Shown: one piece after another, positions 24,365-55,900 of the stretch | Position numbering within the stretch: position 1 is the first letter of the stretch | Layout of the letters: the number at the start of each line of letters is the position of its first letter | Source of the DNA: Blasia pusilla | Taxonomy: Eukaryota | Length of the DNA: 64,000 nucleotides | Direction: 5' to 3' | NCBI GenBank assembly: GCA_050084515.1 | Contig: CM114271.1 | Span: forward strand, 33,604,001 to 33,668,000 | Translations under genes and position numbers: made by a program | Notes under the pieces: model-generated | Told to the model about the DNA's origin: nothing | The model's database searches: none | Seen by the model: the letters and a program-made list of their open reading frames with translations, nothing else

Positions 24365-25649
24365 CATGGGATCCTTCAAATATACCATCTTCGATTATAA
24401 TTTCACTGACTCTAGATGGGTCTTGAAAGGGTCCTTCCTGAAAGTTACAACGTAGAAGTGTCAGAGACAACCCTTGGGAAATAGACAGACTACATTAGGT
24501 TGTTTATTTAAACCCTATCGCAACCAAACGGGGGATACCGATAGAAGTAATGGATGAAATTACATGACCACCAGGCCTTGGACCAATTGGACCTTCCGCG
24601 GCGGACTCTATGGGGACGGGCTCTATGTGGATCATGAGCGAGACAAGATAGGAAAATCTTTGACACCCACTAGAATATATAAAAAACCACTTCCATTCAT
24701 GGAGGTTCTTCCCTGGCAAGTTCCAATTGCAAAGGGAGTTTCCATGGTGCTCCACACCACCAAGCCCAGCCCAAGATTCTGGTGATGCCATGAAACCACT
24801 GGATCCGCTCACAAGCACAGGAGTCTTGGGGTAATGTGAATCCACGAGATCCGCGTGCTTGCCAGGATCGATTGGGCTATGGGGTTGCCCGGGTCGCCGT
24901 CCGGTTGGCGCGTCTCTAGGATCGATGAGAGTGAAGTTGAATCCGCGATTTTCGAACCAAAACTCGCGAATTTTGGACACGGGTTTCTAAATGCGACGCT
25001 AGCCAGGGCTGTAATGGTGATGCTCCAGTCTGCGGATCACGCACAGTGATGCTCCAGTTTGCTGGTCACGCACAGACAGGACTTGCAGACGTTTCGAGGG
25101 CATTTTGATTGCGGTGTGTCGACGGCCATGAGGAACGCCGGATGCCCCTCTGAAAGATAAGGAACTGTAGATCGCTGGTTCCAGCGCTTGCCTTCCACGT
25201 ACCGTTATAGATCGACTCGACTGATCGGCTGCAATGATGGCGATCTCGAGCACATTCTCCGACACTTTCGAGCTGCGCCGGGAAACGATGAGAATGCCAA
25301 GAAGCTGTGCGCAGAGTTGTAAAGGACTGCGATATCCCGTGTCGGAGGTACAATTTTCTTGATTTGCGGGTCTTCTCGAGACTCCATACTACAGTTCTAC
25401 ATGAAACAGTTGGGTGCAAAGTGAAATACGGGAAGCTTTTCCTTCCGATATCCCCGACGGACGTACCTCCGAACCCACGCACATCAATTCTACCTACGGC
25501 GAGACCACCAAGGGCTCGGAGATCCACCGCTTGCTTGAAGTGGAGCTTTAAAGAGGTGGAACTAAAATCGAAATCCTGGTAAGATATACTATACACTATA
25601 ATGCTACACTCTTTCCGTAGAAAAATTGGATTTAAAAAGACGCTCTGAG

Positions 25650-28600
25650 CTAGGTGTCTACGCTTTCCTTCAAGGATGAAGAAACCCACCACCTCTTCTT
25701 GCAGATGAGCAAGCCGTCCGAATCTTCGCGACCTTTGTCTGTCGTATGTTGGGTACATTTCCATCTCATCGCCTTCCCCAAAACATTGGCATTGTCCAAA
25801 AATTGTGTTGTATCCCGGATGATCACATGGCCATTGGGCCGTAAGATCCGGTCCATTTCTAGCATGACTTCTTTCATTTCACATCTGCAGCGCGAGGAAA
25901 ATGAGAAAAACGCAGTGTTGTAAATCTCTCAAGCTACGAGAAGTTTCAAAGATTGCAGCTATATTTCACTTCGCACATTTTGCAGAGACTTCATTCCATT
26001 CTTTCGCACATCGAATGCTTCAGTTTCCATCTACTACATACCTTTGGCTTTCAGCTGTGAAGAGGCCAGCCACATGAAGCAAGTCATATGTTCTTGGATA
26101 GGTCGAAAACGCTTCGCACCTGCGAAATAGGCGATCCAATTCCAGAAGGAGAACTCCAGTTATGCTCCAGAATCGCAATGTCTTCCGAAATTGGATCTAT
26201 ACGACGAGTCAAGAACGCAGACAATAGATTGGACAGCCCCCATGGTCCGGAGAATGCTTGACATTCGTGTTGGACATGACGAATCTTTTGACATCAAGGA
26301 CTGTCTCCCTCCCACAAATTCTCCTCAAGAATGCGTAAGGCTTACCAGTCAGTGACGGTTCCGATCAAGCCCCGATCAAAGATCACTCCTAGAGAGTTCG
26401 TTGCGTACGAAGAGACAACGTTCATCACCCAGACGGGGTCGTCGATCAGTGCCACAGCGAAACTTCCGTAACGAGTGTTCATGTCCATAACGTTTCGGAT
26501 TTTCTCACCGCCGAGTTCCGGGACAAGTATTTTGTAGTGTCTCACACGCTCCTTCCATATTCTCGTGTCTTGATTGAAACCACCAGTGTTGCCTCCCGCA
26601 GTCCATTGCAATCGCTCCGGCGGTAGCGTCAGTCTTTCTGGCCATTTTGGTATCGTGTCCACTGACATCTTCTTGGCCTCCTGGTGTTGAGGAACTATGC
26701 AAGGTCGCATAGGCACATACCTGCACAACGCCTTGGCGCTCTTTTCAGAAAACGTCTCTTTCAAGAGTTGATGCAGTCGGAAGGCGATGGTTGAATTCAT
26801 TGGAGACATTTGCAATTCTCGTGAACGCTGAATTTGTGTGGACTTCTCAGCAGTTCTACGCTCGGGAGTTGTTGCAACTCGTACCGTAAACTAGGGAAAA
26901 GTAGACAACTGGCGTGAAACTTCAACATGAATTGTAAGGAGGACATGTAAGGAGGTTTTCAGGTTAATGAGTTCGGCAATGTGTGTTCGCAAGGAGCCTT
27001 ACCAGGCGGCATCTTCCTCAATGGCGTCATCGCATATTGGTGGATACGTTCCCTCTTCCCTCTGCTCATAGCATGTGTTGTCCAGAGGTTTCTGCCAAAC
27101 TGCAAGATCATCCTTGGCAGCATAGAACTTGTAGCACATGCGATTCAGCAAGTCCTTAATAGCATCGTAGTTGGCCTTCTGTTTCTCCTCCGTGGACTCC
27201 CATCCCTTCCAGTGGACCTCATAATTCACGGGAGGTCCCGAAAGCACCCAAAAACCACCGGGGCGCAGAATACGATCAACTTCAAGCAGGTACACTCCAC
27301 CTGAGAGGACGGGAAGCATGTAGCTGGCAAGTCAGAATCGACCAGAAATATGTTGCAACTTGACCACAGTTCCTGTGAATGACGGATGCCAATTTCACAA
27401 ATGTTGAAGACCACTGCGACTGATCTGCACGAGATCCTAAAGGTCCAATTACAAACTTCAATCCTCAGTATGTCGTCGCTCCGGGACACTACGGGAGCCT
27501 TCTCTCCTGTAAACCTCTTGAAGCTTCACCAACTGTTAGTGAGAGGAACAAGGTCCATAGATTGGAAACAGAAGGGGAACTTGAGATTCTCTGCACTGCA
27601 CTTACCAAACTCTGTCCAAGGAATCAGGCAACGGGAGCAATGCGCTATGTCAAACGCACTAGCAGGGTAAGGCATACGTTGCGTGGCAATTATCCCGAGC
27701 ATGGCTGGAATTCCACGTTCCAAGGCGAATTGCACCTGCGCTTCATGGTTGTCGCGCGGTGCAATGGACATTGTGATAATACCGCGGTCCAAAAGCTCAC
27801 CACCCCAACTAGCCACCTGCAAACATATCCAGAGGAAGAAGGTCAACATGGCTTTCTTAGAAACGTGATGTTTTGCTATTATTGCACGCTGAAGTGCCAA
27901 AAATCTGAACTGACGAAGATAACATCCCTCAGGAACCGGCAAGGATATTTCCTGCTGAAAGATCCGGATATGTGAACATTGACGCTGTGACTTTCACCCG
28001 GATTGTGCTCAGGTAGACGTACTAACGCTTCGTGACGTTTATAGCACATTCCCATCCACCGTAGGAAATTGCTATCCACATATGAGAGTCTTGGAGGTTT
28101 GGAGATCGCCACTTGGTAGTTGAGAGTGAACATCCCTCTACATCTGAAAAATTGCTTCGAATACTCTCCCTGAGCATTTTATGAACCACGAAGAAGGAAA
28201 AGAAAGAGAAAAGAACGTCTTCTGAAGGTTGTGGAAGGCGACGAAAATCCTCTCAACTCACCCCGCATCCAGTATCGATAGCAGTTCTAATGCTACCTTC
28301 CCTCAATCCTGGTATTAGGTCCTCCATTTTGTCGATATACTCGCCAACACCGTTGGGAAACATGGTTCCTCCTCCGGGAAAGATGAACTTGTCTCCCTTT
28401 TTTTTCAACCAGTTTTGATTTGCCTTTTCATTGTTGATCCAATCGTAAGGGACATTTCTGCAATGGTAAGCCACAATCGAATTTCAGCAACAATCCTGAG
28501 AAAACGAATTGAGAATCTGTTGCACTGGAAGAAGAATCGCCTACCACCTGATGTATCTCAGGTCCAGTCGACGGATCAATCGCTCCAGACAAGATCAAGC

Positions 28601-30083
28601 GCCGAAGCTATGGCGTTCAGAAGTCAGAGAAATAAAAGGGCACTCCGATGACGTACTGCGGTGACAAAGCGGAGAACAATTTACATCGCAATCGGGGCAA
28701 GCATGTCTTCCATCGACTTACTTATACCAGCACTCACTGCGACTTTTAGGCCACGACATAGTCGGCTTGTAACCCTCCGGTGGTGGAATCAGACACATGA
28801 GCTTTTCTGCTTTTGGTGGACAATGCCTTTCGCGGAAAGCCATCCTTTGCTTGTCGTACTTCCTCCATCTCTGCAGAAACGGCATTAACAGACCTCACAA
28901 AATTAGCCAAGTTCCACTTCTCTCAGGTCCAGTGCAAGACTACCAAGGAATGTTCTTCAAACATGCCAGATTTGAGCAGAATGTGCACTTCCAACTATAA
29001 GGCAGACTTCTTCCTCGCCTGCAACAGAGAGAGATGCGACCGATATCAATAGTTTCAGCCGTTCCATCCATCCGACAAATAATTTGCAAATGACACACTG
29101 AACGTAACGTTATGCTGATCCCTACGAGAAGGAAGGGGTTGTGGACGCATGTGAAGTAAACAAGAGGCTTCAGTAGACAGGGAATTAGGGAACGATTACT
29201 GATTCCCAAGATCTAGCCAGATTTTCCCACGGCTCTAGACGAAGGAGGCCCAATACTAATAGATCACATGTCGAACATATGGCCATTTCTGCATTTTGGT
29301 AAGAAAATCCTGAGATTGGCGAACGGACCTTGCGGAGGCTAGTTTTGGCAAAAATTACACGCGAAAGAACTGAAATGATAACTCGTCCGAAGGAAGTAAT
29401 TACCACGAGATCTGTTCCGTGAGAGAAGGGATGAGCATCATCTCACTACTAGATCCGTGGGAAAATCCAATGCTGGGCGATTTTGCTGCGAAATGCCTAC
29501 ATAGAAAGGTGAATACCTATCTACCTAGTTTAAACCTGAAAGCTGAACTCCTGGAATCAAAAGATCTGCCCATGCTATCCTGTTCTGAAGCTGTTGTCCA
29601 GAAAACTATGAAAGTGGAATCTCCTGCACTTCGCAAACTCCCGGCAATCGTTCAGGCACCTGTGACGTAACTGCTCCCCCTAACTTCAGAACATTCATGA
29701 TCCACCATGATTCATGACAGGCCTTCCACACTTTCTTTGCGACGTCAATCTCCACCCTCAAACAGAACAGAACAGAACAGAGGAGAGGAGAGGAGAGGAG
29801 AGTAGAGGACGCTTACTGCTGGATCAGAACATGGAGTGATGTCCTGAACTGTGAGGTTGCACTCTGGGAATGGTCCTTGCGTGATGACGGGCAGGCAGTC
29901 TGCCTTCTCGACAACGCTCTCGGACTCGCGAGTCTGGACGAGTATCTTCCCTTTCTCGGAACAGAAGGCTCCTCCGAGATAGAAGGAGATGGCGCACAGC
30001 GATGACACCATAAGAAACAGAGGAAGGATCCTCGACTTCTTCTCGTACCCATACGAGCCGGACTTGTGCTCCTTGTCTTTCAT
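25650..30083 (-). CDS. Probable pectin methyltransferase, PMT family (Methyltransf_29/DUF248, PMT20/PMT21-ERD3-like), type II membrane protein, 8 coding exons, about 602 aa
   Basis: Exons: 30083-29817, 28870-28722, 28457-28262, 27816-27606, 27300-27003, 26720-26346, 26119-26042, 25884-25650. Total 1809 nt, all GT-AG, phases consistent. N-terminal TM helix plus [77 protein letters not shown] and EMDRILRP. Confidence 0.95.
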
Positions 30084-32022
30084 TTTGCCTGACCTGCATG
30101 ACACGAACCTCGAGGCTGTGAGCGCATCGTCACAATCTTGAGTCAGCAGGAAAGCAACGCTACCCAAAAATGAGCTCATGTCCGAAATCCACAGTTGGTG
30201 GCCATTCTCTTCTTCCCGAGGCAGGCGGAACGATGATGTCGGATCCGGAGTAGGCTTCTCTGCTCACGACCGACTGCTCGGGCATTCTCCCTACCTCTCA
30301 CGGTAACCTCGATCCGCTTGCTGGCTTCAACGATCTGTTTAACGCACTACGAGGAGGAGAAAAATCTTCAGAGCAACAATGGTCACTCCGATGTGTTCAG
30401 ATTCCCGTGCACAACTCTTCCGGAACTCCTATGCGCGCGAGTTATGTACTGGCTCGTACGGGGTGACAGGCATGTTGCGAGACAAAAGCTACCGCAGTCC
30501 GCTTGCAATCTATGCTCGCGATAGCCCATGGTTGCTCAACCCTCAGATACACCAAACAGTTCACTCTCTGGAAACAGAAACTCCAGCTCGTTGCTCTGCA
30601 CCGCATTGGATTTTAATGCGCTACTCTTAGTTACTAGCTTCGATCGCAGAGCTCTGGCCAAGCGGAAAAGGGTCCACGACGAGAGCATACACCTCGGTAT
30701 CTAGTTCGACCATCGAAATCATCCGAAGGCGATATTCGGCGTTCCACATCCAGACGACCGAGACACTGAGAGAAGGCAGTTCCAGTACATTTTTCGGATC
30801 GTCCTTGAACCTGAGCTGCAGGTTGATGAATAAGATTCATCCAGATCCGATCAAATTCGCAGACATTCGAAGGCACGCGACAAAGAGGGGGAAGGAAATC
30901 GACGAAAGCCTGCAGTTTCAGACTAAACGAGCATCTATCGTCAAAAACGGAATCAAGTTGGATAATGATTATTTTATCATCCTGTACCCAACTCGACCTC
31001 CAGTGAGTGGGAGTCATGACCTCAATCCAGAGCTCAACGTCTGTCGGAGGCAGAGGAACTTGTCGCCGCTACTAACACCTGCGAGTCATCCGCCCCGTTC
31101 TGCAGAGATCAGATTTGCCTTGAATGCTTCTTGGAAAGCTGCTCTGTGGCCGATGCAGTCTAAACTGGCCTCAACCACAGCAGCGAGAGCCCGCGTCCTG
31201 AAAATTTCCGAGCAGAGACATCCCAACAGCGAAAGGGTGGCGGATGTGCGAGGCCGGGGAGGTCTCCCCAGTGACAAGCCCGGAGCCGAGACTTCGGAGT
31301 GAGACACGGCACTAAAGGAAGAGTCGAGAAAATCTAGTGGCGGAAGGTGCTGCAAAAAGAGGAAAGCGGAACAGGAGTGAGCGGAGGGGATACTGCGTGA
31401 ACGCAGGAGAGTTGAATCGAGTGACCACTCGGAGACAAGGTAAAAGGCGAAATGCGGCTCAGTGGATGCCTCAATCATACGTCCGAGCACTCAGATGGCA
31501 ATAAAAAGCACTTCCCATCCTGACAACAGACCAATGTCACGCCTGGGCACAGCTGTAGCTAGCTAGAGCTAGGTACTAGCTACACCCCTTCCTTCGTGAG
31601 CTCTCCTCACATCCCACTCACCGCATCTCTGCCGTGCTGTGCTCAAGGCACACGCCACTGCAACTCGACAGTCCCGTCACAAACCCAAATCGCCATCTCC
31701 ATATTCGGGCGTTATGTTTACTGTTCTTCGACATGTTTCTATGCTGTGTCCCCCCGATCCCGAGCTCCTCTCCGTTCCTACAGCCTCGCGCTTAGGTGCC
31801 ACGACAGCTTTTAAAAACTCGCTGTGATTCCCATGGGCGGTCCTCGACTCCTCGTCATCCATGGGATCCTGCCTGCTATCCTCGTCATCATAATTTCGAC
31901 CCAACAGAAATTTATTGGCTTCGGGGTCTTAATTCGTCCATTCATTCAATCTCAAGTCGTACGACTTTAGTTCCCTTTTTCACGAGATACGGGAACTCGA
32001 ATGTTTCCTTTTCTTCCTTTCC

Positions 32023-36942: not shown

Positions 36943-38133
36943 ACCAAGGAGGAGTGGGATATTAATGTTACCAAGAGGAGTATAACACTAATGTCCTCCA
37001 CTTCTTCTAGAAACCAATGACCTTACATATATATGTAAGGTCAAACATCCCACTCCTCCGTGTTTTGAAGTGGAGGAGTGAGCAATTTTATTTTCCATCG
37101 ACTACACTCCAACTTGCCAATAATATTTAAACAACGAGACTCAACCACAAGCGACTTGCATTGCTCTTCTATTGACACAATCTGCACTTCACATATTTGG
37201 TACTCCAATATCACCATTGCACATGTTGTGATTTTTTTAACTATTGCAGAATGCGAAAAAAGAGGCTTTTTACAACACTACAAATATCAACATTCATATT
37301 CAACAGTTATAGAGAGGGATTGTCAAAAGTGTAGTTGCTTATTACTACAGAGTGCACAAAGAGGAGGCTTTGTTCAGAGATAGTGCATCCTCTATCTGCA
37401 TAGCACATACATGCTAACTAATGCATGAATGAGAATTTTTCTTAGAGTGCTACATTTTCAATAAGAGTGGGAAAGAGAAAAGGAAATTTAAGTATGAGAG
37501 GATAAGAGAGATAAGGATAAATTTTCAACATAGAGTCGTACATCTTTAGGATGGGAAGTTTGATAAAGAAAAAATTTGAAGGTTTAACTTTCAAGAAAAG
37601 GGGAAGAAAGATACAATTTATTTTTTCAATAGAAGAGGGAAAAAGACAAAGGAATAATTTTTTTTCAACAAGGGAAGACTTATGAAGAATTTTTTAAGTC
37701 CTTTGTGTAGGAGTAATGTAGAATTAGAGGCTCTCTCTCTTTCTCTGTGTTTGTTTGTTGGTCTTGCGGGCAAGCTCTCTAGTACTATGACAACAAGGAG
37801 TGGCTCATGAAATGGGACATCTCAATTGATGACCTACCCATGGTCATCAACTAGGATCTGGCCAAACAACAACAAAGCAATTACATCTCCACCAAAGGCT
37901 TTGGGAGACTAGGGGGAATGCATCTCACAAAAATGGAGAAAGAATGAGGTGCTACCAGACCCTCATGGCAGATCCGTGCAACAAGCCTCTTACATCTTTG
38001 CCACCATTCCCACTAACTTACATCATACATTAGTGAGATTTAGATGTGGCTCAACTGCCCTTGAGATTAAGAAAGAAAATTCTTACAGAACAAAAGAGAG
38101 GCTATATTATTTAGATTTTGCAACTCGGGGCTC

Positions 38134-38501
38134 TATCATGACCATACGGATTATGTCGTAGAGTATAGTGTGCTAGTAGAGGCCATACCTTATGTAGGGC
38201 CGTAGTATCTAGGTAGAGATGCGGTTTCATACATAGGGTTGAGGGTTACTCAATTGAGGGTGACTTTTCCAGTAGGGCCCGCTCTTAGGTTGGAGGATAT
38301 AGTGTGGAGTGCACTCAAAGAACAGTTAGTTCTTTGAGTTGAGCCTGTTGCATTGGGAGTTAGCCTTGGTAGTGAGTAGAGCTCTTGGCTATGGTGGTTC
38401 TCGCAAGCTTCGACCTGGATTCTCCCATCGTGGAGTGGGTTTGGCTCAATTGTATGTGATTCTATACGTGTTTTATGATAGTAGGTCTTTCACGGATTTC
38501 A
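38134..38501 (+). repeat. Terminal repeat A1 (5' LTR-like segment, 368 bp)
   Basis: About 95-96% identical to 47451-47816 (about 16 substitutions and one 2-bp indel by manual count). Contains TATA-like gatatag and an 11-bp hairpin at 38313-38339. Confidence 0.92.
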
Positions 38502-38513
38502 CTCAAAGAACTA
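38501..38513 (+). promoter_or_regulatory. Candidate self-priming primer-binding site
   Basis: ACTCAAAGAACTA at the end of A1 is the exact reverse complement of TAGTTCTTTGAGT at 38327-38339 inside A1. No TGG-starting tRNA PBS is present at this position. Confidence 0.65.
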
Positions 38514-39978
38514 GAGTAGATTGATGGTAGCTTTGATTGTGGATAAGTAGGATCTGGTTAGGGCTGATTGTGTACTCAGCCGTGGATGTTCGTGGCTTGT
38601 GGCCTATGTTGGAGTTGGGAATCTGGTGCGTGGTTGGTTAGGAAAGAAGTGCCTTACTGAGAGCTTTCCAACGCGCTTTAGATCGCCGGATTTTTTCAAG
38701 GGAGTTGGAAGTTATCAAGGATGGAAGATTCTGGTTCGTGTTCGACGGTTTTCTGATGTGGAGAGCTTGGAGTGCGGAAGCTCTGTTGAAGTTCATCCAG
38801 ATCGGGTGAGAGTTACTTGTATTGTGATCTCATGTGAAGCTTGTGGAGCGTTGCGGATTTTTGTGTGCATGAATCTAGGCGGAGCGTTGTCGGATTTGCG
38901 ATTCTGGAGGTGTATGGACAACAAGTTTGTCTGATTTTAAGCTCGGAGTACAGAGCTTGATTGTAGCTAATTTTTTGTGGAGAGATAGCTATGGTGGTCA
39001 ATTAAATTCTGGTTGAAATAGATTCAATTTTTGTTGAGGATTTGTGGAGTAATTGCTGATCAAAATTTGACGGAGTAGCTCAAGGTGTGGCTATGGTAAA
39101 CAGCAGATCGGAGGGGCTAGTTGGTTGGTGACTCCTCCGTTGTTGGAGACGCCTATCCCATTGGGGGCGCCCTGGTTGGGCCTCTCTCCATAGCGAAGCA
39201 TGGCGAACGGGGCATGTCTCGAGCATTTTGAGGCTTCGAGGCAACTCGTGGTAGCTCGGGGCGAGTGGGCGTGAGAGGTGGAGTAAGGAGCAAGGAGCAA
39301 GCAAGCAAGCATGCTTGCTTGGGCGTGAGGCAGTTTTTGCAGGATTTGTGATTTTGAGTGTTGCAAAAGTGATCACCCATCTTTGGGCTATTCTACCTGG
39401 AAGACGCTTAACTGCTGAGTTCTTAACTTTGCCAGTGTACACACTAGTGTAGCTCATTTGGTGCTGTTCGGAGATGTGTTAGGCGCTTTATGCATCTCAG
39501 GTTTTTGGTTGATGGACCTCTAGCGCATAGTACGATGTAGCCTCTCCATGCAGGTGATATTTTCAGGTGCTGCGAGTCCGACTAGCACGTCATCGACCCG
39601 CGGCGGAGTAGCTATTGCGTTAAAATTTTGTAGTGGGTTCTGTGGATTCAAGGGGCGCCACGTTTGGTGGATTGTATTACCTTGATTTCCATATACGATT
39701 GGATTGTCGTTGGACTTCTTGTGTTTGGATCCCCTCCATTATTGCTTCTTGCTTGCGCGTCCATTGTTAGGGTTGACGCTGATTTCCAGAGTAGTGTTAC
39801 TCCTGTGTGCTACCGGTAGTGAGGCTCGAGTGATGACCAGTAGACCGTGGGAGGCTTCTTGTGGTGATGACATGTTAAGTTGCCTACACCCATAGCTAGT
39901 AGAGCTAGAATGGTATAGCGACATCGACGTCACTTGGTTACTTAGTGGTGGTAATTTGGTGGTGGTGCGGCATCGGCG

Positions 39979-41425
39979 TTGGTCATCACAAAGTTGTCTG
40001 GTGGTCTGGTTGGGGACCATGGTGCGGACAGTGGTGGTTTCATACGGAGTGGATTGAGGTATCGGCTACCTTTTCCACGCCGGCGGTTGATGAAAGAGGG
40101 AGGCGAGGGTGTTCCAAATACCGAGTCTTCTACGTTGTTATCAAGTGTTGCAGCTCCATTGATTTGGGACATGGATGGGATATATGGGGCCATGAAGGGC
40201 CCACGACGATACTCGGGTGCAGTGGGCACCATTGAGTTGGAGGACTTCATGCAGGAGTTTGATACGTGGTGTGATATGCAGATGTTGTGGAACGCCACGT
40301 TGTTTACACCCTTCTTGGCTTGGAAGGGGTTGTTTCAGCACTTGGAGGGACCACCCATGGATGATTACCATGAGTTTAGGAAGGACCATGTTGTTGAGAT
40401 TAAGGCGTGGAGACAATATTGGTCTCCAGGATATGTGTCTATCATCCATGGTGGTATTGGTAGTAGTGCTTCTACTATGCCAGCCAGCCCAACGTTGAGT
40501 GGTACGAGTACGAGCCGTAGTGGGGGTACCAGTGGAGTTACCCATGGAGGTACCAATGGGGGTACTAGTGGAGGTACTAGTGCCCCACCATCGTTCAGCC
40601 CGATTACAGAGTTCTTCAAGAGGTTGAAGAAGAACTATCAGGGAGTGAAGACAGAGAAGTTGAGGAGTCTTCAGGAATTTGAGCGAAAGACAGGTGAGAG
40701 TCTTCGTGAGGCATACACTCGAATGCGACGCTTGATTTCAGTTACCCAGGGTATGACTGAGGCTTAGGCAATCCAGTTTTGGTATGGGATCTTGAACAGA
40801 GAATTGCGCCGTAGGCTACGTGATGCTACTCTTATGAGTGATGATTCACCCATATTGACCCATGTGTTTGCTCTATCTGAGAAGATTGAGCTTAACATGG
40901 TGAAGGAGAGAGTGGTGACATCCGCATTCAGTAGGGATAAAACTACTACTTCTCGTGTTCAGCAGACCCACCTCACAGTCTCGTAGTAGTGGTGGTGGTA
41001 GTAGTAGTGGGAGTCGTGGGGGGTACACACGACCTCAGTCAGGTCCTAGAGGGACACTTGCGCAGAGACCATTGCCTTCATTTGCTGCCTTGCAGCAAGG
41101 ACAATCATGTTGGACATGTGGAGGTGATCATGTTAGGAGGTTTTGTCCCCAAGAGGATGGGAGGCGGACTTTGGAGGATGGGCCTCAATCGGCCCCAACT
41201 CAGTGTGATCATTGTGGGAGACCAGGTCATCCTCGAGAGCGTTGCTTTGATCTTCATCCAGAGTTGAGATCAGGCCGTGGCCGTGGTGGAGTAGCTCCGA
41301 GAGGCCGAGGTGGTAGAGGTGGTAGGGGTGGTAGAGGTGGACCAGTGGTTGGAGAGCCTACGGTGGCCACCCCTACCACTACGACAGAGTCAGCTATGGC
41401 TGCCAGGATTGAGCAGTTGGAGTAG
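39979..41425 (+). pseudogene. gag: Retrotransposon gag: capsid-like region, two zinc knuckles, RGG tract; contains a stop and a frameshift
   Basis: YSGAVGTIELEDFMQEFDTWCD and GESLREAYTRM; knuckles CWTCGGDHVRRFC (41108-41146) and CDHCGRPGHPRERC (41204-41245); RGRGGRGGRGGRGG. TAG at 40765 and a frameshift near 40980. The true start codon is uncertain. Confidence 0.85.
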
Positions 41426-42112
41426 AAGTTGGCTACTATGGCTGGTATCCAACATAGATCAAGTTCGGGAGCAGGGGCTTCCACCTCTTCTGGAGGGGAT
41501 GACCTCTCTTATATGGCAAGTGCAGCACAGGTTGAGGCATCAGCTGCAGTTACGAGAGGAGCCACTTGAGCGTCAGAGCCACGTGGTGCTACTGTGGAGT
41601 TGGACCTATAGAGGGGTGAGGTTGGGAGGCAGGCTAGGCTTCCCCAATCATTCTTGTTGTCTGAGGTGCTTAGGACTCCATCCATGGTTCCTACGCAGCC
41701 TATTGAGCCTACAGTGGGGATTGAGGCATCTACATCGCGTGTAGTAGACACGGATGGAGCATCCAGTGCAGTATTGTGGATGGCAACTTTAGTGTTGGGA
41801 TCCCCATTGTTTTCGGCCACGGAGCTGATGGCTTTAGGAGTTGACTTAGCTCCTGTATTTCAGCTAGCAGCCACGTTGTGTGAACGTGGGGGTGTTACTA
41901 CTACATGTGCTAAGGTGGATGAGGGTGTTGCGGTGGAGCGACCCTCTATGTGAGGTGTAGCATTGAGTACAAGTGCTACTTGGCAAGCAACAACAGCGAA
42001 GATGGATGCATTACATGTCCGGCCAGCCATTGATCGTGAGAGGCTTACACCTGGTGTATGTATGTTGGACAACCGGAGTGGGATATTCCGATTGGTGAGT
42101 CCTATAGGATAG

Positions 42113-42480
42113 GTGTATAGACCAGATAGAGTCTTGTTAGACTTTGGTACCCAACCTTTGATGTTGGGAAAGGCGGCATGTATTGGTTTGGGTATTTGGA
42201 GGTCAGAGCTTGAGCCTTGCCCATTCCAGATTCAAACATCACTTGGAGGAGCCAATGATAGGTCTCAATTCATGACACGGGAGAAGTTTTCTGTACAATT
42301 GAGACCGGATCATGCGACTAATAGCTCTCGGTTGGGAGTACCTACAATGGTCACATCAGTCGAGTTGTATGATGTACTAGTTGGAGGAGCAGTATTGTAC
42401 CCGATGGGTTTTCAGATGAACTATTGGACTGAGACAACGTCTTATAGACCTGGTTGGCAGTCGGGGGATGGACGTATGAG
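42113..42480 (+). pseudogene. Retroviral-type aspartic protease, degenerate
   Basis: RVLLDFGTQPLML (D-S/T-G site probably mutated to DFG) and C-terminal YDVLVGGAVL motif. Confidence 0.65.
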
Positions 42481-42868
42481 CAAGGTTCATGTGAGATTTA
42501 TTTATGGGGCTCGACCAAGAGGGTCTTCCCCAACGGTGGTAGCATTTGTGGCTGGTTTTAGTGGAGTAGTCACTTGGCCAGGAGACTTTTTGGAGGGTAA
42601 TCTTTCTGCTATGGATTCTCCTGTGCATGAGGAGGTAGAGGAGGTCCCTAGTTTTGCAACAGTGGCATCCTCATCGTTGGATGTGCCACTTTGGAGTTTA
42701 GGCGGTGCACTACGGCAAGAGGCTGATCGCCTAGAGCAGGAGGCTTGGTGTGAGGCTGTTATACCTCACGAGGAAGAGGAGGCCCCACACCGGACTCCTA
42801 CTTCTGGTCTAGTTGGGTTATCCCCTTTGGATACTACACCCATTGTATGGCAGTATCCGCCGGAGGGC

Positions 42869-43812
42869 ATTTGTGTGTTAGATCTCTTTGGTGGGATTAG
42901 CTCTGGTTTGGCTGCAGTGTTGCAAACCGGTATTCATGTGCGGAGATACGTGTATGTGGAGCGAGATGAGATGGCCCAGAGAGTCTCATCTCAACATATT
43001 GGTCAGTTGATGCGGAGATATCATAAGTTGTTGCCGCCATTAGCTATTCGTGGGTACTAGCGTGCTTTGCCGTCACACATTGCATTGTTGGGGGCGCAGG
43101 ACCTTGAGAGGGTTGGTCCTGTGGATTTGGTGATTGCTGGATGGCCATGTCAGGGTCATACACCTGCTGGTCGTGGTGAGGGATTACACGACCCTAGGTC
43201 TCGATTATTTTGGGAGATATTACGGGTGTTACGACATCTTCAGGTTCATCATGCACGTGCTCCAGCTTACATTCTGGAGAATATTCCATTGTTGGGTGAC
43301 ACTCGGACCCGGATGATGGCGAGTGTTCATGAGGTGCGGTCTTGGATTGGACCAGGGGTGTTGTTGGATGCAGCGCGAGTTGGCTCACGTGCACATCGTC
43401 CATGCTTGTGGTGGACAAACTTGTTGCCTAGGGAGGTTCTACGTCGAGCATATAATGCAGTGCAACGAGATCCTTGCCTTACAGTGGATAGTATCTTGGA
43501 TACTGGGAGACTTTCTTAGGTGGTGAGGGTTATTGATCGGTCATCCATGGTAGTGGTGAACCGTGTGGGCCAGCCTAGGATGGCACTACCCACATTTGTG
43601 AGTTTTTCCTCGTCACATGCCTATAGGGAAGGTGGTCCCGGGCTTGTATGGGATTCTCATGTGCGATAGTTGGTGGAGCCTAACGCTGATGAGAGAGAGC
43701 GTGGGATGGGATTTGCTATTGGTGTGACAGCGGTTGCTTCCATTTTTGAGGCTTCACGACGTCATGTGTTGGGTCAGGCCATGGACCTGAATTGTTTGAC
43801 TTGGATTTTGAG
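42869..43812 (+). pseudogene. DNMT3-like cytosine-5 DNA methyltransferase domain embedded in pol, with three in-frame TAG stops
   Basis: One reading frame holds motif I VLDLFGGI, II YVYVE, IV GPVDLVIAGWPCQG (catalytic PC at 43145-43150), V GLHDPRSRLFWE, VI YILENI, VIII LLDAARVGSRAHRPCLWWTNL, IX ERERGMGFAIGVT and X RRHVLGQAMD. Confidence 0.92.
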
Positions 43813-44067
43813 TCTTGGTATGGCCGAGCAGCGTCAACTTTGGACTATGTCTGTGGGTCATCCACCCCTTGTGATGAGCTCGATGGCTACTGGGACGGTA
43901 GAGGCATCGGTTGGGGCGAGGAGAATAGTATTTTGCATCCTTGGAGTAAATGGGATGTAATGGCTGGGCATGTGGATTTGGTTGCTTATGCTGGTGGAGG
44001 AGTTATTTTCTCAGATGATGGTGTAGCTAAGGGTGTACCATCTTGTGAGGGGGTTGCGTAGGAGCCA

Positions 44068-45545
44068 ATGGCGTCGTCCTCTCCCTCTACTGTGCTAGTG
44101 GAGGAGACTTGGGAGCCATTACTTGGGCCCAAGCTTATGGGAGGTGAGAAACGACGCTTGACACAGTTCCTACGTGCTTATAGGAGTTGTTTTGCCTTTA
44201 GTATGAAGGAGTTGGGTGCTTTGGTTGGACCCGGTATACGGATCGATTTGGCTAGTGATATGCCAATATTTCGTCATCCCTACCGATATTGTGATATGGA
44301 GAGGGACCTGATTCAGAGTAGGACATTGGACCTTTTGGAGGCTGGATTAGTGGAGTTGTCGCATGGAGAGTATGCATCAGCCACTCTCATGCCTGCTAAA
44401 AGGGATGTGCATGGCAACTACACGGATAGGCGAATGTGTGGAGATTACCGTCCTATCAATCGGCAAACCAAGGCCGATAGGTATGCAATGCCTACACTTG
44501 AGGAGATCTTTGATGTGGTGGGACAGGCAAAGATTTTCAGTACTTTGGATCTTCGGGCAGGATACCATGAGTTGCCGATTGGGGAGAGTGACAAGGCCAT
44601 GACAACATTTTGGGGTGTCAACTCTCATGGCAAGGATTGTTTCTACCAGTGGAAATTCTTACCCTTTGGATTGAAGAATGCACCTGCCGAGTTTCACAGA
44701 GTGATGGACAAGATCCTAGCAAGGTTGGATTTTGTTCGGTGTTACATTGATGATATCTTGGTGTTCACTAACACGGTGGAGGAGCATCAGATACATTTGT
44801 AGATTGTGTTTGAGCGGTTGAAAGCTTATGGTCTACGTTTGCATCCACGAAAGTGTAAGTTCTTCTATGAGGATGTTGAGTACTTGGGTCATGTGATCTA
44901 TCTAGGTGGTTTGGGAGTTCAGCAAGCAAAGGTGGAGGCTATTGCACTTATTCCACGTCCGGTAGATGTGAGTAGAGTTTTGGCTTTCATGGGATTGGCG
45001 AACTACTATCGGACGTATGTGAAGGGATTTAGTGCTATGGCAAAGCCTTTGAACCAATTGCTGAAATCAGATCAAGAGTGGCACTGGGTAGATGATCAGG
45101 AGAGAGCTTTTGTGGAGCTCAAGGCCCAGTTGGTGGCGGCGCCTATCTTGAGGAGACCTATCAGAGGGCGCCCATTTTAGTTACACACTGATTGGAGTAG
45201 GTTGGGACTTGGAGCGGTGTTGACACAACATGATGATGAGCACATGGAGTTTGTGGTGGTCTATGCAAGTTGTTCGGATAATGCAGCGGAGTCGCGCTAT
45301 AGTTCATATGAGGAGAGTGCTTGGCAGTAGTGTGGGCTGTGGCATACTTTAGGTGTTACTTGTTTGGCACACAGTTTACCCTTGTTACTGATCCCTAGCC
45401 GCTCAAGTGGTTGATGGAGTCTGACAAGCTTACAGGGAAGCTTGCACGGTGGGCTCTTATCTTACAAGAGTATGACCTCCAGTGATACATAGACCTGGAA
45501 TTGCCAACCTTGATGCTGATGGGTTGAGTAGGAACCCATGTACTA
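44068..45545 (+). pseudogene. pol: Ty3/gypsy reverse transcriptase and RNase H
   Basis: RMCGDYRPIN, FSTLDLRAGYHEL, LPFGLKNAPAEF, CYIDDILVF, KCKFFYEDVEYLGH, FMGLANYYR, LHTDWSRLGLGAVL, CLAVVWAV, FTLVTD, NLDADGLSR. Stops at 44800 and 45178 and a frameshift near 45313. Confidence 0.95.
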
Positions 45546-45903
45546 GCCAAGAGGATGCAACTAGGGCTAGATGGCATGGCAAGGTTGATGAGGAGATGGT
45601 GCCAGGTTGGCATGCATCCGCCTTTTTATGTTGGTTAGGGGTGGACTCTAGTATGGAGGACCACATGACATCTTACTCTAGTTAGAGGGTAGATGGCAGC
45701 CTTTAGATCCTAAGGTTGGAGATGGTGGTACGGATCAGCGTGATATTCATGATGATGCGTTGGTGTTGGAGTTCCTACGGACCAGTAGGGTGCCAAGCAT
45801 AGTGAGTGCCAAGGAGCGAGACCGTGTTCTTCAACGTGCTAAGAGGTATTGATTGGAGGGAACATATATTCTCCGTGTGTGGGAGGATGGTAGAGTATGA
45901 GTA

Positions 45904-47169
45904 GTGCCGCATTTGGTTCAGAGAGAGCGCTTTGTGCGACAAGCCCATGAGGAGTTGGGACATTTTGGGGTAAAGCGTACGTATAGCTTACTCCTTTGTC
46001 AATATTGGTGGCGTGGCATGCATACTCAGGTGCATCAGTTGGTGTCACGTTGTATGGTTTGTGACCGGGTGAGGGCATCATTCAATGCCCCTACACCACA
46101 GTTACACCCCTTGTCTATTATGGGGTTGGGTTACCGTTGGAGTGTGGACTTTACGGGACCGTCACCGTTGACTATACGACATCATCGATATGTGTTGGTG
46201 ATGGTGGAGCACTTCTCCAAGTGGATTGAGTTGGTGGCATTACCTGACAAGGCAAGTGAGGGAACGACATATGCGTTTCTTGGTAGAGTGCTTAGTCATT
46301 TTGGTGCACCAGCTGAAGTGCTGACCGACCAGGGTACAGAGTTTCAGGGTGAGTTTCAAGTCTTGTGTGACAAGGCGTTGATTGATCATCGGACCACGTC
46401 TCGAGATCATCCACAGGCGGATGGTTTGGCTGAGCGTGTGGTTCAGATGGTGAAGAGGGCATTGCGCAAGTATGGCCTACAGAAGGGGCATCTTGGAGAC
46501 TCGGATATTCAGTTGCCATGGTTAGCCATGGGGTATAGGTTCAATCGCCAAGCATCCTTGGCTTCCTTCTCACCTTATTTTCTGTTATACGGCCGAGATC
46601 CAGCCTTGCCAACAACAATTCTTTGGGAGTCTAGTAAGGTGGTGAACCTTGATGACCCAAAGATGTGGATGAGAGTGTGTTCTCAGCGGGTAGAGCTCTT
46701 TTGGAGAGTTATGCCAACAGCCTTTGAGAATCTTGCCATTGCTCAACACAAGGATACGTTGCGGTATGCAACCATTCGGGGTGGAGGTTATCGATCATTG
46801 ATTTGTAGGTTCCATGTGGGGGACTATGTCTATTTGCAGCAAATTGGACCGACAATGTTGGATGTGACGGCAGGCCGCACTATTTTACGAGTGCGCGAGG
46901 TGTTAGCTTCTGGAGTTCTCATGTTGGAGGGTCATGATGGAGTTGTTTGGAAGGATCATGTGCGTAATTGTGTGCCATATCATCTTCCAAATGTGGATGG
47001 TAGTGTTGACCCAAGCTTAGCCATGATACGTGCTAGCTTGAGGTCTGCTGGTAACGTAGCCCGTATGTTGGTGTATGATCGGTGTTCTAGGGGTTGGCAC
47101 ATGATGTGTTTGACTCCACGTATGGATGTTGTTCCTACTGGAAGGTGGGTTTGTCCTCGATGTACTTAG
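45904..47169 (+). pseudogene. DDE integrase (HHCC plus rve core) with C-terminal PHD finger
   Basis: HEELGHFG...CMVC; WSVDFTGP, VLTDQGTEF, HPQADGLAERVVQMVK; C-terminal MLVYDRCSRGWHMMCLTPRMDVVPTGRWVCPRC. Confidence 0.92.
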
Positions 47170-47329
47170 GAGAGGTAGATGACTTGATCTTTGCATGATA
47201 TGGATTACAGATAGGCGACTAACGATGGGGCAACCTAGCACCCGGCCTTCTGATTCGTGCACCCAAGAAGGTGTATAGCATGTAGTAGATGTATAGGGCT
47301 ACCTGGGAGTTAGAGGGACCTAATCGCCA

Positions 47330-47343
47330 GTTAGGGGGGCGAG
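47330..47343 (+). promoter_or_regulatory. Polypurine tract
   Basis: gttaggggggcgag directly abutting repeat B1 (agttgtggtac). Confidence 0.65.
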
Positions 47344-47923
47344 TTGTGGTACACTTGTGTTGGTGGATGCTCTCATCTATGTTATGTATGTATGTGAGTA
47401 TGGTATGCCAGCGATGTATGTTGTATGACGATGTGGATTCGCACGAGAGCTATCATGACCATACGGATTATGTCGTAGAGTATAGTGTGCTAGTAGAGGC
47501 CATACCTTATGTAGGGCCGTAGTGTCTAGGTAGAGATGCGGTTTTACATAGGATTGGGGATTACTCAGTTGAGGGTGACTTTTCGAGTGGGGCCTGCTCT
47601 TAGGTTGGAGGATATAGTATGGAGTGCACTCAAAGAACAATTAGTTCTTTGAGTTGAGCCTGTTGCGTTGGGAGCTAGCCTTGGTAGTGAGTAGAGCTCT
47701 TGGCTATGGTGGTTCCCGCAAGCTTCGACCTGGATTCTCCCATCGTGGAGTGGGTTTGGCTCGATTGTATGTGATTCTATGCGTGTTTTATGACAGTAGG
47801 TCTTTCACGGATTTCAAGTTGTGGTACACTTGTGTTTGTGGATGCTCTCATCTATGTTATGTATGTATGTGAGTATGGTATGTCAACGATGCATGTTGTA
47901 TGACGATATGGATTCGTACGACA
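47342..47923 (+). repeat. 3' repeat block B1(107 bp)-gc-A2(366 bp)-B2(107 bp)
   Basis: B1 47342-47448 and B2 47817-47923 are near-identical; A2 47451-47816 matches A1. Confidence 0.92.
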
Positions 47924-48870
47924 ACTCATTGATGATGAACATCATTACCTCTTCTATTGTACCTTTCACAACCACATTAGACTTGACTTCTAAGATCTCT
48001 TTGCTTACCTCACCCTCATGGTCTCCAAATTCATGGCTAGGCAGAATCACATTTAGATTGTAAAATTCTTAAATTGTTATGTGAATACTTGAGAAAATCA
48101 CTAGGCACAAAGGACCTCTGAAGTCCTTGCTGGTGCTTTGCTGGTTCTGTTCTCAAATTGCTGTTATTTTTGCCAAACTAAGTCCCATAGTCTTATGGGG
48201 TCCCTGTGGACAATTAATCTATTCATTCATTCATTTTCTCTTTCTTTCTTTCTTTCTTTGGAGGGATAGAAACATATGGGTCCTCTTTGAAGACTTTAGG
48301 AGGGCTCTTTAGTTCCTACCTAGTTAAAAAGAAGAGAGGAAAGGAGTCCATTTTTTATTTGATGTACGTATGGGGTCTCTCATGGAGAAATGGAGGAGGG
48401 GAGGGGAAGGTAAGACCTTGTCCATTTATTCCTCCTAAGAGTAAATTTACAAAAATTATAGAAACCTAGAATGCGTGGGTTGGTATAACAAAGAAATTAG
48501 GAAGGTTGAGTGATCCTTTTTTTTTTTCTCTCTTGAAAAGGGAGGTAATAAGTACGATGGATATCCTCTCTCTTGAGAGTGAGGCTTGAGAAGTTACCCT
48601 TGCCCTAATAAATGGTCATAAAAGTGGTAGTATTACATATCATGAGATCAAGATCAAAATTCTACATAGGATAAGATGACTTAAATCAAAATTCCTCAGT
48701 GTGGGAGAGAAGTTGATTAGAATACTAGACCTTGCCCACATAATGAAGACTCGGATGCACACGTTCCTTGAAATATCTTATCCTTGAATGCTCTTTGGCT
48801 CATACCATCTAGGGTATCTGCCAAGATTGATACGAATTTGTCACATCTTATTTTGAGGTAGGTATAGTTC

Positions 48871-52974: not shown

Positions 52975-55900
52975 AGATTGATTCTGAATGCAAACAAGCA
53001 AGGGAAAAATCAGTAGATAAATTTTTGGATACCCAAAGTCGGCTTATTATGACGAGTCTTTACAAATACTTCATGAAATCTAAAAAACGAGTTTTCTTGC
53101 GGCGGAAGCAAGAGTCTTTGACAAGGGAACTGCATGAGGACCCCAAATCATTTTGGAGACGATTAGTAATACGGTCTTCAAAACCTACTCTTCATCCCAA
53201 GTTTTTGATATTTTTTGCTGAAAAACTTTATTTCTTCCCCGATGCTAATCTATGCAACGTTGTGAAAGAATACTTGGCAGAGATATGATTCAACTAAGAA
53301 GATTAGCAAATGGTAAATGTGAGGATTTGGATGGTCTTTCTATTGAACTTTTCAAGTGGGGAGGAGATTGTATTAGACCGATCCTCACCAAAGTATTGGG
53401 TGATGCTCCTATCTATGGTTTTCTTTCAACCTAGTCGCTACGGGAGATTGTTCCTATTCACAAATCAGGAAGGAAGGACTTGGTGACAAACTATCGTACT
53501 ATCATGGTGGGTAGTGTTTTTGCCAAGCTGTTTGGGAAATCGGTGGAGTCAAAGTTGAGCGCATGGACAGAGTCTTTCCAAAAGAGAGCACGGGTCCAAG
53601 CTGGTTTTTGCCCAACATACAACACCATCGAACGTATCTTGGCCTTGCGTATTTTATGGGAGAAATCTAAGGGCAATGGGAAAGCTTTGTTTTGCGGTTT
53701 CATCGATTTCAAGAAAGTTTTTGATACTGTACCTCGTAAGCTCTTATGGGATACGCTGCAAGTCATTTGAGTACCACCAAATCTCCTAGCAATCGTGGCC
53801 ACGTTATAGCATTCCGTTCGGGCCAAGATCAAAGGTTCACAAACTCAAGAGATCTTGAGTACCATTGGAGTCATTCAAGGTTGCTCTCTCTCCCCTATTA
53901 TATTTGGAGTTTTCATAGATGATATCGAAAAATGGTTGGAGGAATGTGATAGTGAAGGTGCCAAGCTTGGGGACTTTGTTATCAAAGCTCTATTGTATGC
54001 AGATGATATCATATTACTAGCACGGGATGACATTAGTTTACAAAAACACCTCAACACTTTGGCACGATTTTGTACCCAAAATCAGATGGAGGTTAATATG
54101 GAGAAGTCTAAGGTCATTATAGTGGGTACTAGATCCAAGTTCTCCTTCTACAAAGGTCTACAATTTGAACAAGTGAAGAGTTACAAATATCTAGGCATTG
54201 ATTTCTCTCATGACTATAGTTGGGCACTGTGCGTGCAAAAAAGAGTAGGAGCTGGTTACAAAGCTCTGTATTCATTTTTAAATCGGTGTAGAAGAGCTCA
54301 TCTTATGTCTTGGGATCTTAGGAAGTTCTTATTTAAGAGCTTAGTGTTTTCGGTGGTCTTATATGGCACCCAAGTTTGGGGCCCTAGTTGTAAGAAGACA
54401 AGTTGGGAGCGCATGGAGAGGGTGCAAAAGATCTTTCTACAAGAAGAATTGGGTGTAAGAAACCAAACTTATGCTATTCTTCTTGCGGAAACATGTTGTC
54501 TTTCTCTAAAGATTGAAGCTCTTTACTTGACCATCACTTATATCGCAAGGGTGAGATCTCTTGATGTTTCTCGCCTCCCTCATCAAGCTTTGCGAGCCAC
54601 AGGTGTCGCGCCCCTACTCTCCTTGAACGTCAATCTTTAGTGTTGCGGAAGCGTACGTTCAGTAGGACATGATCTCATCACTGATCTGCACCCAAACACG
54701 CACTCTCATTAGTCGGGTCCGGGGCAACCAGCGTTCTAACCCATCGAGTTCTCAACTCGGCGTCTCATCAAGCTTAACCTTCCTTAATTCCTAGTTTCCA
54801 AAACATGGCAAGTCCTTCAAGACTTGGAACAAACTTCCTGATTAGTCTAGGAACCTAAAATGGCACTTGTGCGCCTAGCGATCCCAATTGTTAAACGGAC
54901 CTCGTGCGAGTTCCAAACCGAGACCCAAGTAATTGAGTCGCGGGGTGAAATCCAAGAGGGATGTCTAAAATCTCCTCCGTAGACTTGGTTCAGGTTTTCC
55001 AACCCAACCCCAAACTCTCGATCCGTTCCATGCCCTTGAGCAGCCCCATGGCGCCCAAAGTGGGGGTTCTAGTTCCAAGCACTCTCAGAGACCTTCCCCC
55101 TTACTAGTACTTTTGGGGTTCTCCAATAAACCCCCCCCCCTGGAAAAGGAGGGTCGGGCCCTTCATTGTGGCCCTCAACCCGACTCTACTTACAGTCGTT
55201 TCTGGGTTGTTTCTCGGCCGCTGCTAATGTGTTTGCTGAGATCTTTAGTGCGTTTGAATCGGCTTTCCATAAGCCTTCCAACGCACCCTTGTTTAATCCA
55301 AACTAATCTTGGAACTAAAATTTATGGTTATAAATACAGTCGGAAACTCTCAAATGCTAGTGGCGTTCCAAATCTGGATTCTTCCTTTGGCAACCCACTT
55401 TCTAGACTCGACTCCTTTCAAGTCTTATACCGTGTTTGGTCCAGGTTTCTTCGTCGCCACCACAACATTTGAAACGCGAAGCCTCGATTGAGTCTCGTCT
55501 CTTGTCTCTTCTTCGAGACTACTCCAACGCGCAAACCATCTTAGCATGAGCCCACTAATGTTCCGATGTTCCGCTTGGCACTCGTTTGGTCATGAGGGTC
55601 GCGACAACAGGTTCTATAAGATGGATAGCGAATGTGGTGACTTGATCTTCAAAGTGGAATCTGGCAGAACGCAATTGGGACTTGAAACTAATGGCACTCC
55701 GCGAACATCTACAGAAGCAATTTCTCAACATTATTTAGCAGCCCGGGTACAAAAATGGAGTTTTATCAATTTCATGTTAATCTAATGCTTGTCTATTGTG
55801 AACAAGGATATCTACTTGCGGGGATCTCCACGTTCTTTTATCATATTATCGTACGACATAGAACAGGGTCTCATAGGCTAGGAATTGAGGAAGGACAATG

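Follow-up and report, generated by a model that had tools for sequence, protein, structure and literature searches.

The 64,000-nucleotide stretch of the Blasia pusilla genome analysed here (the window; contig CM114271.1, positions 33,604,001 to 33,668,000, with coordinates below counted from its first letter) carries at 38134-47923, on the plus strand, a single Ty3/gypsy-type retrotransposon of 9790 nt with a DNMT3-like cytosine methyltransferase in its coding region. Judged from domain content and termini, the element is a real, well-bounded land-plant member of the Gypsy-DNMT3 group. Taken as a whole, the evidence is best explained, with a probability of about 0.8, by a dead copy of a transcribed streptophyte Gypsy-DNMT3 family in which a Gag-linked methyltransferase would mark the element's own DNA. 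The window copy is about 5% diverged between its repeats, and the family is repeated and currently transcribed.

Read in one frame, 42113-43960 (+) encodes a retroviral-type protease and, behind it, the complete catalytic domain of a C5 cytosine methyltransferase (42869..43812, +), identified by PF00145, by matches in the PDB and by its motifs. This agrees with the initial annotation, made from the letters of the sequence, which had placed a full C5 methyltransferase downstream of the protease and in its frame. The translation contains the motifs LDLFGGISSG (42878-42907), GWPCQG (43139-43156), ILENIP (43271-43288), SRAHRPCLWWTN (43385-43420), ERERGMGF (43691-43714) and LGQAMD (43769-43786), all on the plus strand. 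Motifs I, IV (PC), VI, VIII (RxR), IX and X thus stand in unpermuted order, with ENI at motif VI in the window copy. The second Arg of RxR is a Cys in SRAHRPCLWWTN, a position at which 38 of 54 related copies have Arg. Exactly three TAG codons interrupt the domain (43058, 43517 and 43667), as first noted, and Gln codons are found at these sites in 45, 41 and 37 of 54 related copies.

Several comparisons indicate that the enzyme is a DNMT3-like, unpermuted C5 methyltransferase. PF00145, the profile search that the initial annotation had called for, recognises the window copy with 34 bits against a cut-off of 22 (E 2.9e-8) and the intact relative L046 with 51 bits. In a phmmer search of the PDB, DNMT3A, 3B and 3C make up the first 29 of 53 matches to the window domain, the best of them having an E of 3.4e-10 over residues 253-473 and being collinear with DNMT3A. 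A profile of the family likewise gives DNMT3A/B/C as the first 29 of 47 matches, with E from 2e-16 to 1.4e-13; DRM enters that search at E 9e-7 or worse, over motifs I-IV only. The circular permutation that defines DRM, with motifs VI-X ahead of I-V, was not found in the alignment to DNMT3A. An AlphaFold2 model of the intact relative P0044 (pLDDT 80.7, pTM 0.84) finds only DNMT3A/B/C in Foldseek among the 35 matches listed (to rank 50), with TM scores up to 0.81. The collinear PDB alignment, the family profile and Foldseek thus uphold the original assignment to DNMT3 over the permuted DRM2 type. Pfam of the ORF1 proteins (ORF, open reading frame) gives PF00145 and protease families only, with neither a PWWP nor an ADD domain found.

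The native layout of the family shows that the methyltransferase is the C-terminal part of ORF1 (Gag-protease-DNMT) and does not belong to Pol. A native in-frame TAG at 44059..44061 (+), in frame with ORF2, divides the two. The homologous codon is a stop in 32 of 33 close-family loci (22 TAG and 10 TAA, the remaining one reading TAC), and CAA comes next in 29. Two Marchantia proteins, P0002 (1278 aa) and P0003 (1248 aa), are uninterrupted Gag-protease-DNMT chains that end about 35 residues past the DNMT. In L046 a single frame holds an ORF1 of 1369 aa, a TAG and an ORF2 of 1047 aa comprising reverse transcriptase, RNase H, integrase and a plant homeodomain (PHD) finger, and L051 is built in the same way. 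The methyltransferase had been placed inside the Pol polyprotein, a position that does not survive this comparison, as the domain ends ORF1 upstream of the conserved TAG. The expected uninterrupted frame from protease through DNMT to reverse transcriptase exists in part: protease and DNMT are continuous in Marchantia, L046 and L051, and an in-frame stop precedes the reverse transcriptase. The frameshift near 43915 that had been taken to separate DNMT from reverse transcriptase is a real change of frame, caused by a private 1-nt deletion in a G-run (43909..43918, +; one G fewer than the relatives in 36 of 36 blastn alignments), the native divider being the conserved TAG. In these elements the DNMT3-type domain lies in a Gypsy coding region without introns. 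A second layout, with reverse transcriptase, RNase H, DNMT, integrase and PHD finger in one ORF, occurs in more distant proteins such as P0029.

Because the domain stands at the end of ORF1 before a conserved stop, it would be made with Gag and not at the lower level of Pol. The leaky stop context UAG CAR YYA is known from plant viruses of the tobamovirus type, and in murine leukaemia virus Gag-Pol is made by read-through of an in-frame stop. The stop is followed by CAG TTA in L046 and by CAA TCA in L051. At 44062 the RNA reads of the host species have C in 70 of 74 and 44 of 45 cases, giving CAG CCA after the TAG. The context in transcribed sister copies and intact relatives therefore fits, by analogy, the leaky motif. 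The arrangement resembles the tobamovirus leaky UAG and murine leukaemia virus Gag-Pol in having an in-frame UAG between ORFs, which is read here from sequence alone.

The family occurs in several bryophytes. Relatives were collected by two protein searches and a metagenome scan, from which 80 loci were kept. The protein searches gave 42 and 61 related clusters, 9 and 12 of them from Marchantia polymorpha; the other named sources are Calypogeia fissa, Sphagnum fallax, S. troendelagicum, S. jensenii and Closterium. Identity is 35-39% for the matches from Closterium, one of which also has a CCHC knuckle; at the sequence level these matches show that the group extends to streptophyte algae. No vascular-plant and no Klebsormidium protein was among the named matches of either protein search. 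The metagenome scan confirmed at least 322 stretches among 600 candidates. In a tree of the DNMT domains of the elements, the window copy groups with Marchantia, Calypogeia and Sphagnum-type copies in a bryophyte clade that has a support of 100/100.

Conservation and substitution patterns point to purifying selection on the DNMT part. In 26 Gag-protease-DNMT proteins the catalytic residues F-G-G, PCQ, ENV, RxR and ERER are invariant or at least 90% conserved, and the catalytic Cys is retained in 48 of the 51 close copies with data. Between L046 and L051, which have long open frames and 80% protein identity, omega (dN/dS) is 0.15-0.24 for the DNMT part and lower, 0.02-0.10, for ORF2, values that are rough at a dS of about 1.1-1.5. 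Set against 52 close copies, the window copy shows omega values of 0.189-0.372 with a median of 0.249 (dS about 0.7), in pairs that all share the window copy and so are not independent. As the decay of dead copies raises omega, these figures understate the constraint in the active lineages. A dN/dS below 1 on the DNMT part had been predicted, and the values of about 0.15-0.25 agree with it. The initial annotation was to be given up if the segment were confined to this copy, evolved neutrally or went unrecognised as a C5 methyltransferase; the domain is part of the element's own coding region family-wide, is under purifying selection and is recognised by PF00145, so none of these holds.

As a Ty3/gypsy element the retrotransposon has the expected coding order of Gag, protease, reverse transcriptase, RNase H and DDE integrase, the integrase following the reverse transcriptase (RVT_1, RT_RNaseH, Integrase_H2C2 and rve). 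A tyrosine recombinase, which would mark a DIRS element, was not found; an rve core, an H2C2 zinc domain and target duplications are present instead. Two identical bounding long terminal repeats (LTRs) were not found either, the repeat layout being A-coding-B-A-B. The termini are of the TG..CA type with a short target-site duplication, family ends reading TGTCATG..ACGACA. The initial annotation had the ends exactly right, 38134 and 47923 being the first and last base of the element; the native TAG, the additional stops and frame breaks in gag, reverse transcriptase, RNase H and integrase, and the A-coding-B-A-B layout had escaped it. The target-site duplication reads GCTC at 38130..38133 and ACTC at 47924..47927, with three of four letters matching. 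Over seven independent sites the 4-bp duplication is perfect in four, has three of four bases in two (one of them the window) and is unresolved in one. Where reads and contigs run directly from one flank to the other, 9794 nt are missing, the sum of 9790 and the 4-bp duplication, and the insertion-free flanks read through with three shared letters. A 6-bp duplication, CAACTC, was rejected, since the joined flanks share three letters only and the family termini give 4 bp.

The element-free joined flanks (38126-38133 to 47924-47933) occur in several variants, both among RNA reads and among the DNA contigs of two runs; in run X2 their depth is 11.9 against a flank depth of 14.3. They represent an empty allele or else empty sites that are paralogous. 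Judged from loose ends at 37911 and 37967, the element seems to lie within spliced, transcribed sequence.

The family is expressed. In two RNA runs of the same species, 4504 and 4394 reads are at least 90% alike to the element over 38234-47775. First mates map almost only to the minus strand (13-158 per bin against 0-12), a pattern that signifies sense RNA in most types of stranded library. Likeness to the window copy reaches 99% in no more than 14 and 12 reads, so the RNA stems from sister copies. Most RNA reads are free of the window lesions at 43517, 45311, 45481 and 45696, with an extra G behind 45311 and 45481. A candidate transcription start lies within A1 at 38295 (+), where 25 RNA molecules begin beside a depth of 105 (run X22). 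A joint seen only in RNA, 45697-46712, skips 1014 nt with 16 other letters between its sides (16 and 29 reads). Its ends are not GT..AG, and it resembles a transcribed deletion derivative without the N-terminal half of the integrase.

The window copy itself is dead, with at least seven in-frame stops and at least five frame breaks. Its reading frames, all on the plus strand, were assigned by tblastn with related proteins. A long leader without a recognised ORF (38514..40170) precedes Gag, homology to which begins only at 40171; Pfam gives no match on 39955-40767. Gag (40171..41425) has two CCHC-type zinc knuckles (41108-41146 and 41204-41245) and is read in frame 1 over 40171-40968, where the Marchantia ORF1 protein P0002 is 70% identical. 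An extra base at about 40962-40969 breaks this frame, and from 41027 to 43915 the end of Gag, the protease and the DNMT are read in frame 2. The aspartic protease (42113..42500) has LLDFGT (42134-42151) at its active site against LLDSGAQ in the family; in the intact relative L046, Asp_protease_2 scores 22.4 bits, under the cut-off of 24.3. The start of ORF2 and the reverse transcriptase occupy 44062..45312, assigned by Pfam and tblastn (frame 1 over 44110-45312), with RVT_1 at 44428-44898 (110.8 bits) and a TAG at 44800-44802. The RNase H region (45100..45600) was placed by collinearity with P0005 and the ORF2 of L046, and is split by frame breaks at 45311/12 and 45481/82, its first part being read in frame 3 (45312-45482) and its second in frame 2 (45482-45595). 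The integrase (45685..47169) has an H2C2 zinc domain at 45919-46077, a DDE core at 46132-46413 and stops at 45850 and 45898, and is read together with the PHD finger in frame 1 over 45685-47163.

Chromoviruses are Ty3/gypsy elements with a chromodomain on the integrase. The window family resembles them in having a chromatin-reader module at the C-terminus of the integrase and differs in that the module is a PHD finger (PF00628). The finger lies at 47059-47163 (+) in the window, at residues 990-1034 of the L046 ORF2 and at residues 1623-1667 of P0029. It is found C-terminally on the integrase in every DNMT-bearing sublineage examined, with 25.6, 40.6 and 50.4 bits.

The repeats are arranged in an unusual order. 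Repeat A1 (38134..38501, +; 368 nt) starts TATCATG, against TGTCATG in relatives, and ends TTTCA. Repeat B1 (47342..47448, +; 107 nt) ends ACGAGA, against ACGACA in B2 and relatives. A 2-nt spacer, GC (47449..47450, +), separates these internal copies of the element's 3' and 5' ends, and is followed by A2 (47451..47816, +), delimited by alignment to A1, and by B2 (47817..47923, +), the final ACGACA of which is the 3' end of the element. A1 and A2 are 95.1% identical, with 16 mismatches (15 of them transitions) and two gap columns; B1 and B2 are 93.5% identical. The A pair is present in nine of the 36 sources of at least 9 kb, and the B pair flanks A2 in eight of these nine, the ninth being cut by a contig end. 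Three of the eight A-coding-B-A-B sources are loci of a subfamily with a protein identity of only 30-33%. All eight have the 2-nt B1|A2 spacer, the junction being a perfect palindrome in L050. A G-run resembling a polypurine tract just upstream of B1 (47334..47339, +) occupies the same place in the eight complete sources, across both subfamilies. The terminal A1 starts TG and the internal A2 TA at L027, L054 and L059 (three of seven sites); both start TG at L050, L061 and L073, and both TA in the window. The TG/TA difference could be plain G>A decay or a true difference between cut and uncut junctions.

These repeats may be read in terms of replication. Some members of the Ty3/gypsy superfamily, the Tf1/sushi group, prime themselves. 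Directly after A1 lies a primer-binding-like site, CTCAAAGAACTA (38502..38513, +), which does not look like the complement of a tRNA 3' end; neither a tRNA gene nor an Rfam family was found in the 64-kb window. A hairpin in A1 (38314..38338, +) has a 3' arm, 38327-38338, complementary to these 12 nt. The distant family has the same complementarity in a different sequence (12 nt in L059, 10 nt in L073 and 8 nt in L061); over the seven sites, complementarity between A and the stretch after A1 measures 14, 12, 12, 10 and 8 nt in five and is absent in two. The site may accordingly serve self-priming, as in Tf1/sushi, where likewise a stretch after the 5' repeat is complementary to the 5' region of the RNA and not to a tRNA 3' end; unlike in Tf1/sushi, the complementary stretch in the window is about 32 nt downstream of the candidate start and not at the first base. 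In the window, folding of the 5' region gives no significant result (z -1.4), and the local hairpin beats long-range pairing; the 5' fold of the distant family is significant (z -3.4). The unit B+A is LTR-like, with the G-run before B and the end of A, CA, ahead of the primer-binding-like site, and the integrated ends lie at the B|A boundary. At the A2|B2 junction, then, the end of this unit meets its own start. We infer that the integrated form corresponds to a circle with two LTRs that was opened at the B|A junction on the primer-binding side.

Put together, the layout suggests the following model. Gag-protease-DNMT would be the chief translation product, to which occasional UAG read-through would add reverse transcriptase, RNase H and integrase, and the methyltransferase would thereby enter particles in Gag-like amounts. 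After protease cleavage it could methylate de novo the double-stranded cDNA or the fresh insertion, giving the element its own 5-methylcytosine mark, while the PHD finger of the integrase probably reads a histone tail and directs integration.

A number of observations weigh against this explanation. The window copy is unable to make any protein; a stop-free DNMT part exists in only two of 47 fully covered close loci and any ORF of at least 400 aa in only 13 of 80 loci, most genomic copies being dead. Read-through of the UAG is drawn from conservation and context only, and Sphagnum-type copies read TAG CAA CCC, which lacks the last A of the leaky motif. The start at 38295 was seen in one run only. 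Summed over the element, DNA contig depth is hundreds of times that of the flanks in two runs of the same species, and such summed depth is no copy number. The contigs of the intact relatives L046 and L051 contain neither A nor B repeats. Kinship with KnitGypsy-Dnmt3 of Klebsormidium nitens is drawn from domain type and repeat layout alone. In the one published assay of a Gypsy-DNMT3 enzyme, the DNMT domain of that element showed no detectable activity in yeast, a test that its authors call inconclusive in the text of PMC5890265 available to us.

The absence of activity in yeast could also mean that the domain is kept for something other than DNA methylation, such as nucleic-acid binding in reverse transcription, 5-methylcytosine in RNA, or marking of one of the two identical internal junctions. 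That the A-coding-B-A-B layout is common to DNMT3-bearing elements of two unrelated classes hints at a link to replication. However, conservation of catalytic residues is expected only if catalysis matters, and the 26 proteins show little or no variation at the Cys, the ENV Glu and the RxR Arg; the fold and best matches are, moreover, those of the DNA enzymes DNMT3A/B/C and not of DNMT2. We therefore regard a role outside DNA methylation as quite unlikely. A related proposal keeps catalysis and makes the enzyme a replication component, Gag-linked methylation marking the junction for the integrase or shielding the internal junction. The integrated copy looks as if a circle of two B+A units had been opened at a palindromic CA-NN-TG junction; an identical junction remains uncut inside the element, and its conserved 3' end, ..CACGACA, contains CpGs. 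We consider this version very improbable; if true, junction marking would account for the joint occurrence of DNMT3 capture and the A-coding-B-A-B layout in two unrelated classes, Gypsy and DIRS.

Another possibility is that the methyltransferase acts in trans, on host chromatin or on rival elements and not on its own cDNA, where it might dampen host defence loci, silence competing transposons, or mimic gene-body methylation around insertions. An enzyme made at the level of Gag would be abundant and need not remain in particles, accidental activity of an element's DNMT3 on the host genome is discussed by de Mendoza et al. in the part of PMC5890265 consulted, and purifying selection is compatible with any enzymatic role. 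We found no evidence for nuclear targeting of the ORF1 products, and although the present results do not separate action in cis from action in trans, we judge the latter unlikely. The three stops and the lost catalytic Arg of the window domain would also suit a one-off capture of a host DNMT3 fragment, through nested insertion or an assembly chimera, that evolves neutrally, an outcome for which the initial annotation had allowed. This is hardly credible: the same protease-DNMT arrangement is found in hundreds of copies, in several bryophytes and Closterium, and this family-wide occurrence, an omega of about 0.25 and the Gln codons at the stop sites refute it; the element is, in addition, covered over its whole length by contigs from two DNA runs and by RNA reads of the same species. 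Marking of the element's own DNA by a Gag-linked methyltransferase remains the explanation that we prefer.

Elements of this kind have been reported before. As far as the text available to us goes, Gypsy-DNMT3 and dinoflagellate DNMT retrotransposons were described in 2018 from dinoflagellates and one charophyte (PMC5890265). KnitGypsy-Dnmt3 of K. nitens is there a Gypsy element with DNMT3 and repeats in the order A-coding-B-A-B, and has a Ka/Ks below 0.2 in its DNMT part. In the portions available of two later sources (PMC12344493; 10.64898/2026.05.21.726589), streptophyte Gypsy-DNMT3 is mentioned only via citation of de Mendoza et al. 2018. The literature found names no land-plant member, in line with the initial annotation, which knew of no characterised land-plant family; the supplements of PMC5890265 and PMC12344493 may list bryophyte sequences. 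The window element shares with KnitGypsy-Dnmt3 an unpermuted DNMT3-type domain in a Gypsy-type coding region, a DDE integrase, the A-coding-B-A-B layout and purifying selection, and differs in residing in a land plant, with relatives in Marchantia, Calypogeia and Sphagnum. In the window family the DNMT ends ORF1 before a conserved stop, a feature that we set beside the published description of KnitGypsy-Dnmt3. SymbioDIRS-Dnmt3 of Symbiodinium also joins a DNMT3-type domain in a retroelement to A-coding-B-A-B repeats, and in yeast its domains, tested in isolation, carried out de novo methylation of CG, according to the part of PMC5890265 consulted. Unlike the window element, with its rve integrase, Gypsy order and 4-bp duplication, it has a tyrosine recombinase, a DIRS-type reverse transcriptase and no target duplication. 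DNMT3A, 3B and 3C (among others PDB 5yx2, 6f57 and 8tci) are the best sequence and fold matches, collinear from motif I to X with PCQ, ENV and RxR conserved; in contrast to them, the window domain, at about 20-22% identity, lacks PWWP and ADD and is fused behind a retroviral-type protease.

Some further observations concern the history of the family. The dS between the window copy, in its liverwort host, and L001-L056, copies that cluster with a Sphagnum fallax protein, is about 0.7; against Sphagnum, a host PF03141 exon is 66% identical and the element DNMT about 73%. The low dS and the higher DNMT identity may reflect transfer between bryophyte lineages, and the DNMT tree nests Sphagnum-type copies next to the window copy. 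Horizontal transfer between moss and liverwort was not supported by an approximately unbiased test, in which one liverwort clade was not rejected (p 0.149). A protein 47% identical to the element DNMT, P0065, is filed at NCBI under a bacterial metagenome-assembled genome, with the name DNA cytosine methyltransferase, and is probably a wrongly binned eukaryotic contig.

The element's sense strand is rich in G and T (G 31%, T 29%, A 22%, C 18%), its flanks being even in composition. GC skew reaches +0.26 in both the window copy and the Sphagnum-type copies; the intact L046 and L051 have lower values of +0.11 to +0.13, and in the distant subfamily the sign is reversed (-0.05). The G+T-rich strand is a trait of the subfamily. 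Strand-specific editing after insertion was rejected as its cause, since differences are symmetric (A>G at 122 and T>C at 114 places, run X1), and it is also contradicted by the transitions of both kinds between A1 and A2 and by the subfamily-wide skew.

Elsewhere in the window, 24500-31500 on the minus strand holds the exons of a gene for a putative pectin-type methyltransferase. The PF03141 exon at 26342-26890 (-) scores 131 bits, and its best named match, from the liverwort Riccia fluitans, is 83% identical, the next named being 62-67%, which bears out the land-plant host first assumed. A fragment of another retroelement's reverse transcriptase lies at 53810-54640 (+; RVT_1, 65 bits), and an ORF at 8203-9165 (-) with a match to aminotransferase class I/II (37 bits) is probably a host exon.

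The current analysis places in land plants the Gypsy-DNMT3 group, which has so far been described from algae. Annotations of the genetic model Marchantia polymorpha already contain uninterrupted ORF1 proteins of the group, unrecognised and labelled hypothetical; together with the sense transcripts in the window species, this opens the role of the enzyme to experiment in a tractable plant. From the ORF layout the enzyme is predicted to be produced and packaged together with Gag, a prediction that limits the range of experiments needed. The repeat layout, with its integrase-type ends, presents a second puzzle, namely how Gypsy-DNMT3 elements replicate.

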